40,220 nucleotides of DNA. Origin: a bacterium. Lineage in GTDB: Bacteria > Blakebacterota > Blakebacteria > Blakebacterales > Blakebacteraceae. A program made the position numbers and the translations under genes. The stretch covers positions 1 through 40,220 of the forward strand of contig JALGWK010000002.1 of assembly GCA_025774205.1 (NCBI GenBank), read 5' to 3'. The notes below the pieces were generated by a model that had not been told where the DNA came from, made no database searches, and was given only the letters and a program-made list of their open reading frames with translations. Positions 17,474-38,276 of the stretch are shown in pieces (positions within the stretch are counted from its first letter, which is position 1; every line of letters starts with the position of its first letter).

Positions 17474-17571
17474 AACAATCCCCGTTCCTGCTCCACTCAC
17501 CATCCGACCGGACACTATGCTGATCCCGTGATCTCATGATCCCTGCTGACAGTTCCACGGAAGAGACGCCC

Positions 17572-19755
17572 ATGAAGGATGTTTTTGCCCTGACTCCCGA
17601 CGAGATCGCGGACCTGCCTCCTGATGGAGGGGCCGGATTCAACCGCCTGATCTTCGAGGAGAGCCCCTACCTCCTGCAGCATGCCCGGAATCCCGTCGAC
17701 TGGTACCCCTGGAGTGAGGAAGCGTTCGAACGGGCGGCCATGGAAGAGAAACCGGTTTTCCTCTCCATCGGATACGCCACCTGTCACTGGTGCCACGTGA
17801 TGGAGCATGAGTCGTTCGAGGACGAGGAGATCGCCGCGCTCATCAATGACAACTTTGTGGCGATCAAGGTGGACCGGGAGGAACGCCCCGATCTCGATCA
17901 TGTCTACATGGCCGTGACCCAGGGACTGACCGGCAGCGGCGGCTGGCCGATGACGGTCGTGATGACGCCCGACCGGAAACCCTTTTTCGCGGGTACCTAT
18001 TTCCCGAAGGAGAGTGGCTATGGCCGACCGGGCATGAGGGACCTGCTGCCCCGGTTGATGGAGGCCTGGCACGATCAACGGGAGGAGGTCGTCAGTTCGG
18101 CCGAAGAGATCACCCGCTGGTTGAGCGGGAACGCGGGTTCGTGGCCCGCGCGGGAACTGGACGTCGAGATCCTTCACGAAGCGTACCGGGCCCTGGCCCG
18201 CAGTTTCGATCCCGCTGCCGGAGGCTTCGGGCAGGAGCCGAAGTTCCCCTCACCGCACAACCTGCGCTTCCTCCTGCGCTACTGGAAGCGCTTCGAGGAG
18301 CCTCATGCCCTGGAGATGGTGGAACTCACGCTGGAGAAGATGTATCGCGGCGGTATCCACGATCATATCGGCGGCGGTTTCCACCGCTACTCCACCGATC
18401 CGATCTGGCTCGTGCCCCATTTCGAGAAGATGCTCTACGATCAGGCCCTGATCGCCGAAGCGGTCACCCGGCGCCCGGTGTTCGCCGACATCGCGCGGGA
18501 CATTTTCACCTACGTCATGCGGGACCTTACCGACGAACAGGGCGGTTTCTATTCGGCTGAGGACGCCGACAGTGAGGGGGAAGAGGGGAGATTCTATCTC
18601 TGGACCGGTGAGGAGGTGACCTCGATCCTCGGTCCGGACGCCGACCTCTTCGGACTGGCGTACACCCTGGAGGAGGAGGGCAATTACCGGGATGAAGCCA
18701 GTGGCGGCCTCACCGGCCAAAACATCCCCTATCGCCGGCTTCCCGATGAGACCGTGGCGGCTGAATCGGATCTCACCCCGGAAGACCTGGATGAGAGGCT
18801 GAAGACCTGCCGCCGTCAGCTCTTCGATGTCCGGGAGGAACGGATCCGTCCCCTGAGGGATGACAAGGTCCTGACCGACTGGAACGGACTGATGATCTCC
18901 GCCCTGGCCCGTGGCGGGAGGATCCTCGGGGATCCCGGTTATACGCGGGCCGCGGAACGGGCTGCCCGCTTCGTCTGGGAGGGGCTGAGGGACGACGAGG
19001 GAAGGCTGCTGAAGCGCTGGCGGCGGGGCAACGCGGGTCTGACCGCGCACCTCGACGATCACGCTTTCTACCTGCAGGGTCTCATCGATCTCCACGATTC
19101 GACCCGGGAGGTGATCTGGCTGGAGCGGGCGGTCACGATCGCCGGCCAGATGGTGGAACGGTTCCTTGACCCTGATGAGGGTGGATTCTTCTTCACCGCC
19201 TCCGATGCCGAGGAACTGATCGTCCGGAAGAAGGAGATCCATGACGGGGCGACTCCGTCGGGCAATTCCGCCGCCGCGTTCGCGCTCCTGAAACTGGGCC
19301 GGATCACGGCCCGCACCGGATGGGAAGAGATCGCTGCGGGGATCATGGAGTCGTTCGGGGGACAGGTCGGTCGGGCACCGGCCGGATTCACCGGCCTGCT
19401 CTGCGCGCTCGATTTCCTCATCGGACCGTCCACCGAGGTCGTGATCGCCGGGCGGAATGACAGCGAAGACACGCGACTGATGCTGGAGAGGCTCTCCACG
19501 GAGTACCTGCCCAACACGGTCACGCTCTTCCGACCGACCGGGGATGAAGATCCCGCGATCATTGATTTCGCGCCTTACACGCGCGCTCAGACGGGTGATG
19601 ATGAAAGGGCTGTTGCTTACGTCTGCAGAGACTACTCTTGTAACAGGCCCGCATCGGATGTCGATGAGATGATGTCTCTCATCGCTGACCAGACCGGAGA
19701 CGCAACACAGCCGGTCGAGATACGGCGCTGCTCGAATGCGACGGTTGTTGCGTGA
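17572..19755 (+). CDS. thioredoxin-domain protein of the YyaL/SSP411 (DUF255 + six-hairpin glycosidase-like) family
   Basis: [32 protein letters not shown]...[22 protein letters not shown] and [21 protein letters not shown]. Start re-called to MKDVF (ATG 17572, GGAAGAG RBS upstream). The last ~20 codons overlap a repeat element (see findings). Confidence 0.85.
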
Positions 19756-19763
19756 CAGGGCAC
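19723..19763 (+). repeat. copy 1 of a dispersed ~41-nt repeat (27-nt perfect core at 19730-19756)
   Basis: The core GCTCGAATGCGACGGTTGTTGCGTGAC is identical to 38189-38215. Flanks match at CGGYGCY before the core and WGKGCAC after it. Confidence 0.9.
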
Positions 19764-19789
19764 GAAGAAACGGAAGGATGAACATCGTA

Positions 19790-21359
19790 ATGAAAAACGG
19801 ATTCATGCTCAGATCAGCCGCGATCACGGTGATGACCCTGCTTGTGATCGGGACCGTGATGCCTGTGGAAGCCCGGCAGCAAGGGAGCCGACAGCAGGAA
19901 CGTGGCGATGAGCAGGCTCAGCGACAGGCCCTGCCCGAGCGACTGGCGGGGATGTTCGACATGAGGGCGATGGATGCCGACATCAGGTTCCTCTCCCACG
20001 ACCTGCTGGAAGGACGTGCTCCGTCGGGCCGGGGTGAGGCGATCGCCGTCGAATACATCGAAGCCAGGCTGCGTATGATCGGCGCTGAAGGCCCCTTTCC
20101 GGGCGGGAGTTACCGCCAGCCGGTGCCGCTGGTGAAGCAGAAGGCCTCATCCGATATGGAACTCGGCATCGCCTCCCGCGCGGGGGAGCGGAGCTATGCC
20201 TTTGGACCGCAGTTCGTGGTCGATTCCGGGGTCTTCGCGCCGGTGGTGGATGTGGACGGTGAGATCGTTTTCGTCGGCTTCGGCTCGGTAGCGCCCGAAT
20301 TCGACTGGGATGATTACAAGGGGATGGACCTCGACGGCAAGATCCTCATGATGCTCGTGAACGATCCGCCGGCGACCACTGCCGAACCCGATCTCTTCGC
20401 CGGCCGGGCGATGACCTATTACGGACGATGGACCTACAAGTACGAAATCGCCGAGGAAATGGGCGCCCAGGGTGTCCTGCTGGTGCATGTCACCGATATG
20501 GCCGGATACGGGTGGAATGTCGTGCAGACCTCGTGGTCAGGCGACCAGTTGCACGACCATCCGGAACACGACTGATCGGATGACCGGCTACAACGTCGTG
20601 GGAGTGCTGAAAGGGAGCGATCCCGCTCGGGCGGAAGAATACGTCTGTTATTCAGCCCATCTCGACCACCTCGGCATGGGTGAGGGAGAAGGGGATGTGA
20701 TCTACAACGGCGCGGTGGACAACGCTTCCGGGGTGGCGGCGGTCCTGAACGTTGCCGGTGTCCTCGCCCGTCTGCCGGAGCGGATGCGGCCCCGGTCGTT
20801 CATGTTCGCGCTCGTGACGGCCGAGGAGTCGGGCTTGCTCGGCAGCGGAATGCTGGCGCTTGACCCTCCCGTGCCGGACACACAGATCGTCTCGGTGCTC
20901 AACCTCGACTCGATGAACATGTGGGGTGAAACAGATGACATCGTTCTGGTCGGTGGAGAGCGGTCAGATCTGTGGGAGGTGGTGAGTAACGCGGCCGCGC
21001 TGCTCGATATGGAAGTTAAACCGGATCCCCGGCCCGAGGTGGGCGGATTTTTCAGGAGCGACCATTTCTCCTTCGCCAAGGTCGGCATTCCCGCCACCAG
21101 CCTCGGGGCAGGCGATTCCTATCGGGGTCGACCGGCCGGGTGGGGTGCCGAACATTCCCGGGAATGGACGGCTGGTACCTATCATCAGCCCACCGATGAG
21201 TATGACGACACCTGGGTCTATGACGGCGTTCTCCAGGAAATGATGGTCTCTCTCCTGTCGGGACTGGAGATCGCCCGCTCGGAAGGGTGGATCGAATGGA
21301 AACCGGGCGACCCCTTCGGTCGTATACGCGATGAGAGGCGCGGCGGCGGGGGCTTCTGA
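19790..21359 (+). pseudogene. M28-family (PA-domain) aminopeptidase interrupted by an internal out-of-frame deletion
   Basis: Two track ORFs (19736..20575 and 20472..21359) are the N- and C-halves of one M28 peptidase. The N-half has a signal peptide MKNGFMLRSAAITVMTLLVIG, the PA domain and ...YGWNVVQTSWSGDQ. After a frame change the C-half continues TTIRNTTDRMTGYNVVGVLKGSDP...YSAHLDHLG...DNASGVAAVL...TAEESGLLGS. About 60-70 aa that normally separate these blocks are missing. The junction is near 20546-20552. Confidence 0.75.
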
Positions 21360-30959: not shown

Positions 30960-31003
30960 CGTTGTCTCCTGATGTCATGCCTCGATTGCTGCGTGATAGG
31001 GCA

Positions 31004-32725
31004 TCAGTACTTCCGCTCGACCGGTTTCCAATGCGTGATGGTCACCGGTTTGTAGTCGAGTTCCACTCCTGCTGGCCGTTTCCACGCCAGGGTGTGCTTC
31101 AGCCAGTTCTCGTCATCACGTACGGTGAAGTCCCTCCGGGCGTGGGCGCCGCGTGATTCTTCCCTCGCCAGGCCGCCCTTCAGCATCACTTCGCCCAGTT
31201 CGAGGAGGTTCTCAAGCTCGAGCACGTGGAAGAGGTTGGTGTTGTAGAAGCGGCCGGGATCCTTCAGATGGATGTTCTCGAAGCGGGCCCTGAGTTCCTC
31301 CACCTTATCGATTCCCTGCTGCATGAGTTCACCGGTGCGGAACACACCCAGGCAGTCGGTCATGACCGTGCGCAGTTCGCGGCGGATATCGTACGGGTTT
31401 TCCGGCCCCTTCTGCTGCATGACACCCTCGAAGATCCGGGCCTCTTCGGCTTTCACCTGGTCGGCCGATACCGGCGACAGGTCACCTCCGCCCTGGACGT
31501 AATCGAGCGCCTCTTTGCCGGTGAAGCCCCCCCAGACGAGGCATTCAGCAGTGGAGTTCGTCCCCAGCCGGTTGGCCCCGTGCAGGGAGTGGCAGGCGAC
31601 TTCCCCGGCCGCCCAGATGTTCTCCACCCGGGTCCGGCCGTTGATGTCGGCCTCGATGCCGCCCATGGAGTAGTGGGCCACCGCCCGGACCGGAATCATG
31701 TCGTGGATCGGATCGATGCCGAGGAAACCCATGCAGACCTCACGGATCAACGGCAGCCGGCTGTTGATCCGGTCGGCGCCGAGGTGGGTGAGATCGAGCC
31801 AGACATGGTCGAGCCCGTTCGGTTCATCGATCCCGCGGCCCTCGAGGATCTCGGTCATCTCCGACCGGGAGATGATGTCGCGCGGGGCGAGTTCCATCAT
31901 CCCGGCGGCGTACTTGTCCATGAACCGTTCGCCCTCGGAATTCCGCAGGTACCCTCCCTCACCGCGGCACCCCTCGGTCATGAGGATCCCGGAGGGGACC
32001 AGTCCGGTGGGATGGAACTGGATGAACTCCATGTCCTCGAGCGGGATTACGCCGGTGCGGTAGGCGTGGATAAGACCGTCCCCGGTGACGGTGTGCGAAT
32101 AGGTCGTGAAGGCGTAGATGGCGCCGGCACCGCCGCTGGCGATGATGAGCGCCTTGCCCCGGATCACCTCCATTTCGCCGGAGAAGGCATTGATGGCCGT
32201 GAGGCCGGCGAACCGGCCCTCCTCCATGAGGATACCGGTGACGAAGACCTCGTCGTAGCGGGTGTAATTCGGCCACTTGTTGAGGGTGTCATAGAGACAC
32301 TGCATCTCCATGAAGCCGGTCTTGTCGGCCGCCATGGTCGCTCGCGGGTAGGAGTGACCACCGAAGGGTCGCTGGAGGATCTTCCCCTGTTCATCCCTCG
32401 ACCAGGGGATGCCCCAGTGATCGAGCAGCATGATCTCCTCGGGGCTCTGCTGGACGAACTTGTAGATCACGTCCTGATCAGCCAGGAAGTCCGATCCCTT
32501 TACCGTGTCCCAGGCATGCAGGTCGAAGGAATCGCCTTCCTCCGGGTAGAGGACCCCGGCGGTACCGCCCTCCGCGCACACCGAGTGGGCGCGCATGAGC
32601 TGCACCTTGGAGACCAGGCCCATGTTCACCGAGCCTTCGCTCTTCCGGGCGATCTCCACCGCGGCGCGCAGTCCCGCGAGACCGGTTCCGTACACGATGA
32701 CGTCGTGGATGCGTTCAACTGCCAT
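31004..32725 (-). CDS. sdhA: succinate dehydrogenase/fumarate reductase flavoprotein subunit
   Basis: [15 protein letters not shown] (FAD dinucleotide fold), [10 protein letters not shown] (covalent-FAD His context), HYSMGG, HGANRLG. AAGGAGA RBS before ATG 32725. Confidence 0.95.
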
Positions 32726-37978: not shown

Positions 37979-38181
37979 ATGGGTACTCCTGTTACTGAAC
38001 GGCATGACGGTTGTCGATCGATGGACAGTTCATCGATGGATCGGGCTGATATCCGTTACTCATACGTGAATGGTCTCGTCGGCTATCACCGGAAACATCG
38101 TAGATCCCTTGACTGTCTAACAGGCAGATGCCTAGGTTTCAAGGTTCTTCTAGTGTACTGTCAGGTGACAAACGTCGGTCC

Positions 38182-38222
38182 CGGTGCCGCTCGAATGCGA
38201 CGGTTGTTGCGTGACTGTGCAC
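38182..38222 (+). repeat. copy 2 of the dispersed ~41-nt repeat (27-nt perfect core at 38189-38215)
   Basis: Identical core to 19730-19756. It lies in the ybjQ/TPR divergent intergenic region, 62 nt upstream of the TPR gene start. Confidence 0.9.
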
Positions 38223-38276
38223 TTGTTGTCCGGAGTCGGAAGAGTCCGACCGGATCGCCTGAGAGGTGATGATTCC

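Follow-up and report, generated by a model that had tools for sequence, protein, structure and literature searches.

A dispersed family of gene-less palindromic repeats, probably IS630-type transposable elements, in an uncultured bacterial lineage

The stretch of DNA analysed here, hereafter the window, comprises 40,220 nucleotides of contig JALGWK010000002.1 (assembly GCA_025774205.1; contig C359 in our numbering) from a metagenome-assembled genome (MAG) of the GTDB family Blakebacteraceae. It carries a YyaL-like gene followed by a gene for an M28 peptidase and, further along, a pair of divergent ybjQ-like and TPR genes. An exact 27-nt repeat, GCTCGAATGCGACGGTTGTTGCGTGAC, forms the end of the YyaL-like gene and recurs in the intergenic region between the other two. 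An earlier reading, made from the sequence alone, took the two copies for a structured element in the leaders of exported-protein genes. The analysis reported here places the 27-mer at the right end of an imperfect palindrome of ~160 nt, a dispersed family that is in all likelihood a MITE (miniature inverted-repeat transposable element) of the IS630 type.

Materials and Methods

The genome under study, G000, is a 3.09-Mb MAG in 527 contigs with a G+C content of 61%. The comparison set comprised 10 genomes of the phylum, available as MAGs of 63-96% completeness, together with 31 genomes from other phyla; G001 belongs to the same genus as G000. Recurrence of the 27-mer was controlled against 100 dinucleotide-preserving shuffles. 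An nhmmer profile of the element family was built from 11 full copies, and boundary and flank tables were drawn from an alignment of 35 full-length copies from nine genomes. A covariance model of the family (R1; 160 positions, 46 pairs) was used to score 150 first-look candidates per genome, so that the resulting counts are lower bounds. Gene contexts in G000 were taken from a crude codon-usage gene caller, which predicted 2750 genes (90% coding).

Results and Discussion

Anatomy and distribution of the element

As the sequence-only reading had held, the 27-mer is no chance recurrence: it had matches in none of the 100 shuffles, with 0 expected by chance. Its claimed 41-nt extension with four mismatches was likewise recovered (19723-19763 against 38182-38222, 90% identity). 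It is not, however, a motif private to these two sites, as a genome search allowing up to six mismatches gave about 50 matches in G000. The element of which it forms part (GTGTCATGTCAC...GTGACAGGGCAC) has terminal inverted repeats of ~26 nt (left GTGTCATGTCACGTGACAAACGTC, right GACGGTTGTTGCGTGACAGGGCAC), contains no gene, and folds end to end as one long imperfect hairpin. Its boundaries are sharp across the aligned full copies.

With the nhmmer profile, 61 matches at 59 loci were found in G000, of which 13 are full length and ~46 shortened or partial; terminal tips number 132. Size forms run from 26 to 167 nt, the copies that are not full length sharing the termini while missing internal parts, down to the 26-nt form that consists of the two tips alone; mini forms of 34-40 nt also occur elsewhere in the genome. 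Many other G000 copies are one-sided remnants, as is copy 1 of the window. Their inner breakpoints form a continuum, which in left halves spans model positions ~46-109 and in right halves ~100-144, and the junctions with flanking DNA have no TA; a breakpoint hot spot for half copies was considered and dropped, given the spread from position 100 to 144.

The covariance model and BLAST together placed the family in all 10 phylum genomes, with 1 to at least 68 matches each, while BLAST found it in none of the 31 genomes from other phyla. The exact core was present on 22 metagenome contigs and on none of the viral contigs searched. In G005 many contigs terminate within near-identical copies, which suggests recent activity. 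No Rfam family matched the window at gathering thresholds, or any of four full copies at E ≤ 1.

Copies in the window

The coordinates are collected in Table 1. Copy 1 matches the nhmmer model at positions 104-173 and, by BLAST, a full copy with 94% identity over positions 95-162. The covariance model extended this copy back to 19601, but only because global alignment was forced across coding sequence that is conserved in YyaL, and the extension was not counted. Copy 2 scores 45.7 bits in the covariance model (E = 2e-8), is flanked by TA (38151-38152) and TT (38223-38224), and is 54 nt upstream of GTG 38277, the start codon of the TPR gene. A third, degenerate mini-copy is probably present as well, a weak call made from its place as third member of repeat family D4; at its right end it overlaps the stop codon of a gene on the minus strand (31004-32725).

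Table 1. Positions of the element copies and adjoining genes in the window. The label MITE follows the assignment argued for in the text.
Feature	Position	Strand	Description
YyaL-like (DUF255 / Thioredox_DsbH) gene	17536..19758	+	last ~20 codons and TGA stop (19756-19758) encoded by the MITE fragment
MITE copy 1	19696..19763	+	right-hand 68 nt only, ~consensus positions 95-160, ending in the right repeat ...GACGGTTGTTGCGTGACAGGGCAC
27-mer, copy 1	19730..19756	+	internal-loop motif GCTCGAATG with the inner portion of the right terminal repeat
Signal-peptide gene (N-terminal part of M28 peptidase gene)	19778..20575	+	probable start ATG 19778, preceded by GGAAGG
Third, degenerate mini-copy (probable)	30971..31004	+	GATGTCATGCCTCGATTGCTGCGTGATAGGGCAT; left tip joined to right terminal repeat; 63% identity, repeat family D4
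MITE copy 2	38153..38222	+	70 nt, internally deleted, with both terminal repeats (GTGTACTGTCAGGTGACAAACGTCGG ... CGACGGTTGTTGCGTGACTGTGCAC)
27-mer, copy 2	38189..38215	+	exact match

Two further observations concern these neighbourhoods. Directly after copy 2 (38225-38250), the sequence TGTCCGGAGTCGGAAGAGTCCG, itself a small palindrome, resembles the left arm of the second MITE subfamily, GTGTCCTGAGTCGGAAGTCCG, at 19 of 22 positions with a 2-nt gap, and a degenerate version stands at the same place in G001. Perhaps an older remnant survives here and copy 2 used its end as a target, although the evidence is weak. The M28 peptidase gene seems split: an open reading frame (ORF) at 19778-20575 (265 aa, with a signal peptide and no Pfam match) overlaps another at 20472-21359 that has the Peptidase_M28 domain, which could reflect a frameshift, a pseudogene or an assembly error.

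Target site and transposase

The flanks of the 35 full copies bear the mark of a target preference. TA adjoins the left end in 23 and the right end in 18, with C at -3 and G at +3 in 22 copies each. Both flanking dinucleotides are identical in 16 copies (13 TA/TA and three CA/CA) and degraded in the remainder. That three of the pairs are CA/CA speaks for a true 2-bp duplication over fixed bases of the element. A copy in G005 is flanked by CTA...TAG where the corresponding site in G006 has a single CTAG, which fits insertion at TA within CTAG. This is the target preference given for IS630 (Tenzen & Ohtsubo 1991, as cited in PMC2170065).

Transposases of this family are present in sister genomes, with Pfam DDE_3 (IS630 family) matches in G003 and G008. 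On contig C103 of G003, the frame of an IS630-family transposase ends inside CTA|GTGTCATGTCAATCAACAAGTGTCGG, a sequence that matches the MITE end at 22 of 28 positions, the first 11 nt being identical. A second IS630-family copy in G003 ends in CTA|GTACCATGTAAC, with related tips, and G008 holds a complete 1.13-kb insertion sequence (IS) with related tips and CTA...TAG flanks. It was direct reading of the ends that gave these matches: a 17-nt terminal-repeat pattern (up to three mismatches) missed the IS630 loci, and inverted-repeat scans were uninformative. A parent IS was also sought in G000 from tips 0.6-8 kb apart, but all that this yielded was a false positive, in which the tips enclosed an ordinary gene of contig C124. 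The IS630-family copy on contig C93 of G003 adjoins a very AT-rich stretch of ~400 nt (1000-1390) and a HigA/HigB-like pair of small genes; the genome is otherwise G+C-rich, and the stretch looks like foreign DNA.

Empty sites in relatives and effects on host genes

Both window sites are empty in G001, where the flanks and the gene order (YyaL then M28; ybjQ and TPR) are conserved. Around the 68-nt fragment of copy 1 the conserved flanks are GACCAGAC(C) and ACGGAAGGATGAAC, and the copy is also absent in G007 and G008. Between ybjQ and TPR, G001 stays collinear to either side of the copy 2 site, and what is missing there is exactly the 70 nt bounded by the repeats.

The claim that the repeat forms the 3' end of the YyaL-like ORF, supplying its last ~20 codons, is upheld by the G001 ortholog, which has no repeat there and ends ...IDQTRYEVTEE*. 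In G001 the gene end reads ...MAFIDQTRYEVTEE*, with its TGA overlapping the ATG of the next gene (ATGA). By this comparison, the fragment has replaced ~8 native C-terminal codons of the YyaL-like protein by ~20 element codons and a TGA from the terminal repeat. The insertion also uncoupled the formerly overlapping YyaL stop and M28 start, the next start now lying 20 nt away. In the C103 locus of G003, too, the TGA stop of the transposase itself falls within the corresponding terminal repeat, a few nucleotides from the tip. The G001 ortholog further moves the start of the signal-peptide gene from 19790, which had put the repeat 34 nt upstream of it, to a probable ATG at 19778, 14 nt past the last base of the element (19763) and 21 nt past the 27-mer.

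In G004, a full copy in the opposite orientation lies inside the signal-peptide codons of the TPR ortholog (contig C44, 7149-7812, with the element at 253-413 of that segment), and this is an independent insertion. The outward-reading left tip of that copy (CATGACAC) gives an in-frame ATG that restores M-T-L-I-P-A-A-L-L-V-L.... This single case in G004 suggests, from the reading frame, that tips can donate start codons besides stop codons.

Placement of copies at gene ends

All but one of the 59 G000 loci are intergenic or at gene ends. Their contexts are spread over co-oriented tandem (17), antisense tandem (15), divergent (nine) and convergent (six) arrangements, and across the 59 loci there is no bias to 5' leaders, to exported genes or to one orientation. 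Where TA flanks the element, it forms, with the first G of the element, a TAG read from either side. At 22 of 49 TA-flanked tips an inward-reading gene really does use this TAG as its stop, and 14 further cases have a gene end between -30 and +12 nt relative to the tip. Many copies would thus stand exactly at gene ends because their tips re-form TAG stops; in a genome of 61% G+C, harmless TA and CTAG targets are likely concentrated at stop codons, where the tips regenerate the stop.

At a MITE copy upstream of gcvT (G005, contig C227), a second, unrelated dispersed repeat of ~38 nt (GTCCCATCCGGAATCTGTTCTTTAGATCGCGAGTCCGG), at 1666-1703 of the segment examined, adjoins the element; it occupies more than 15 sites in genomes of genus g3 and has many sites in G003 and G006.

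Assignment of the family

The family has the attributes of a MITE: it is short and non-coding, has terminal inverted repeats and many dispersed copies, and varies in presence and absence at orthologous sites. We assign it to the IS630 type, with a probability of roughly 85% that it is ordinary selfish DNA of this kind, because of the probable 2-bp (mostly TA) flank duplication in CTAG together with an IS630 transposase gene in a sister genome that has the same terminal repeat. Mobilisation in trans by the IS630-family transposase is well founded, although we infer it from the shared ends. The DDE transposase, supplied in trans, would bind both terminal repeats, excise the element and paste it into a TA, preferably within CTAG, with duplication of the TA. 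Copies would then decay through internal or one-sided deletion. Copy 2 would be an insertion between ybjQ and TPR that has undergone internal deletion, and copy 1 a full insertion into the last YyaL-like codons that was later deleted to its right half, although that order is itself deduced. Insertion in or beside stop codons would leave genes intact, allowing such copies to persist.

Several observations weigh against this assignment. Roughly every second copy has degraded flank duplications, and copy 1 has neither a left terminal repeat nor a TA at its left junction. The C103 transposase gene of G003 is cut by the contig end, looks frameshifted, and has only one end visible. No IS630-family transposase was found in G000 itself, either by a DDE_3 search or by tblastn with the G003 fragment, nor in seven other carriers, all MAGs within the stated range of completeness; insertion sequences assemble poorly. 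Lastly, the whole-length covarying hairpin, a core that exceeds the terminal repeats in conservation across subfamilies, and a single-strand asymmetry stand out, as a plain cut-and-paste MITE needs the terminal ~26 nt only and none of these three features.

Hairpin body and the case for a single-stranded function

Those three features raise the possibility that the element, besides or instead of being selfish DNA, functions as a folded single strand and that selection acts on this one strand throughout the candidate phylum. It could be a mobile RNA module spread by transposition (one that stabilises mRNA 3' ends, a target of RNase, a processing signal or a small RNA) or a DNA hairpin or cruciform that short IS630-type elements need for their mobilisation. 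The covariation is strong, with 95.9% of cells paired over the 46 pairs of the family stems and 33 pairs changed on both sides, a result equalled in none of 500 shuffles, while slid controls were 27-48% paired. In the G006 and G007 subfamilies, and in a few G000 copies, the arms are almost wholly different yet still pair, around a near-invariant core of ~70 nt (...GGCG.GGCGACGA-hairpin-CGAGGAGGCGCAACGC...) with the fixed internal-loop motifs GAG... and ...GAAT. The + strand has 276 G-T wobble cells against 14 A-C cells and folds better in all 35 copies (consensus fold -74.5 against -25.2 kcal/mol; mean of single sequences -96 against -74 kcal/mol).

Despite this evidence, we regard such a function as unlikely. 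With no orientation bias between co-oriented and antisense copies, half the copies would be transcribed as the weaker strand. Scans gave no promoter-like or terminator-like sites within or beside the elements, and the Rfam searches described above were negative. Much of the wobble asymmetry resides in six majority pairs and could be the inheritance of one founder. Hairpin bodies of this kind are moreover common among bacterial MITEs, ERIC and the Correia elements included (PMC2229807, PMC3184786, PMC10969869).

The covariation bears directly on an argument of the sequence-only reading, which had taken two different left arms pairing with the same right arm as compensatory support for structure. 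Compensatory changes are real at the level of the family, where the covariance model that it had proposed was built and tested as above. The two-copy argument itself fails. The left arm named in copy 2, ACAAACGTCG, is the true left terminal repeat of the element, whereas that of copy 1 is an internal segment that pairs with another partner in full-length copies. Both hairpins are present as drawn when folded; they differ in significance, copy 2 reaching -32.4 kcal/mol (z = -2.98 against shuffles) and copy 1 only -21.6 kcal/mol (z = -0.50), which is not above shuffles.

Other explanations

The original proposal of a cis-regulatory structured leader upstream of exported-protein genes draws on the window, where each of the two copies is followed by a signal-peptide gene in the same orientation, and where copy 2, if transcribed, would form a predicted hairpin of -32 kcal/mol in the TPR leader. 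The genome-wide contexts largely refute it and leave it very improbable. A co-oriented downstream gene is found at only 26 of the 59 loci, downstream genes are not consistently exported nor the position or orientation fixed, and in many cases a copy borders on a stop codon, not on a start codon. The loci are spread over all four arrangements of neighbouring genes, the element is missing from the same gene pairs in the sister species, and the copy 1 hairpin is no better than shuffles. Any effects on the neighbouring exported-protein genes are side effects of the landing site and not a function.

A REP/REPIN-type palindrome, moved as a single-stranded hairpin by a RAYT (an IS200-like Y1 transposase), would account for palindromic, high-copy intergenic repeats of which one strand folds better, as expected of substrates of a single-strand transposase. 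We rejected it as having very little chance of being correct: Y1_Tnp (PF01797) was found in control genomes but in none of the 10 carriers, the termini differ from those of REPs in being symmetric inverted repeats with a probable 2-bp duplication, and they match the ends of a DDE (IS630-family) transposase gene. Finally, an assembly artefact, through chimeric joins at a shared k-mer, comes to mind in a MAG so fragmented and with contigs of relatives ending inside copies, but has next to no probability because gene order is kept across both window copies in the independent G001 assembly.

Comparison with known elements

As an IS630-type MITE, the family is closest in behaviour to ERIC, or IRU (MITEEc1 in ISfinder, where it is filed under IS630; PMC11602168, PMC2229807). 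Both are gene-less imperfect palindromes of ~130-160 nt that form a long hairpin when single-stranded, with tens to hundreds of intergenic copies, a TA-type target, internal deletion and insertion variants, and an attribution to IS630-family transposases. No sequence relationship was seen or is expected. The hosts of ERIC are enterobacteria, the present one an uncultured lineage labelled Gemmatimonadota. The present family also differs in that a matching transposase end was found and in its core, which is conserved across arm-swapped subfamilies.

Correia elements of Neisseria (NEMIS/CREE; PMC2229807, PMC3184786) share the ~26-nt terminal inverted repeats, a TA duplication that is probable in the present family, size classes of 100-160 nt that arise by internal deletion, and a frequent position next to genes, with effects on transcripts. 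Their ends carry promoter elements and their core an IHF site, whereas no promoter-like sites were found here, and no cognate transposase is known for them. The YyaL-like tail recalls Rickettsia palindromic elements (RPE) and further MITEs that fuse with ORFs (PMC10969869), in which the element can join the host frame. RPEs, however, lie in frame within genes and are translated through, while the present elements usually bring an immediate stop, by the TAG of the tip or the TGA of the repeat, and so affect gene ends only. Among IS630-family elements proper (IS630, ISY100; PMC2170065), the G003 member shares the terminal-repeat sequence, and a TA duplication within CTAG, probable for the MITE, is a further likeness; the MITE differs in having no transposase gene and a length of 160 nt against ~1.1 kb.

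Conclusions

The assignment changes how several features of this genome are read. The C-terminal 'extension' of the YyaL-like protein would be transposon-derived and no feature of its family, and the two upstream 'motifs' of the window would carry no regulon signal. Much of the fragmentation in these MAGs is probably due to the repeat. The family would be the first MITE described, with a likely IS630-family partner, for this poorly known uncultured lineage. It offers a useful test set for selection at the single-strand level on the hairpin bodies of bacterial MITEs, and it points to a simple way in which insertions may be tolerated at gene ends, through tips that regenerate stop codons.

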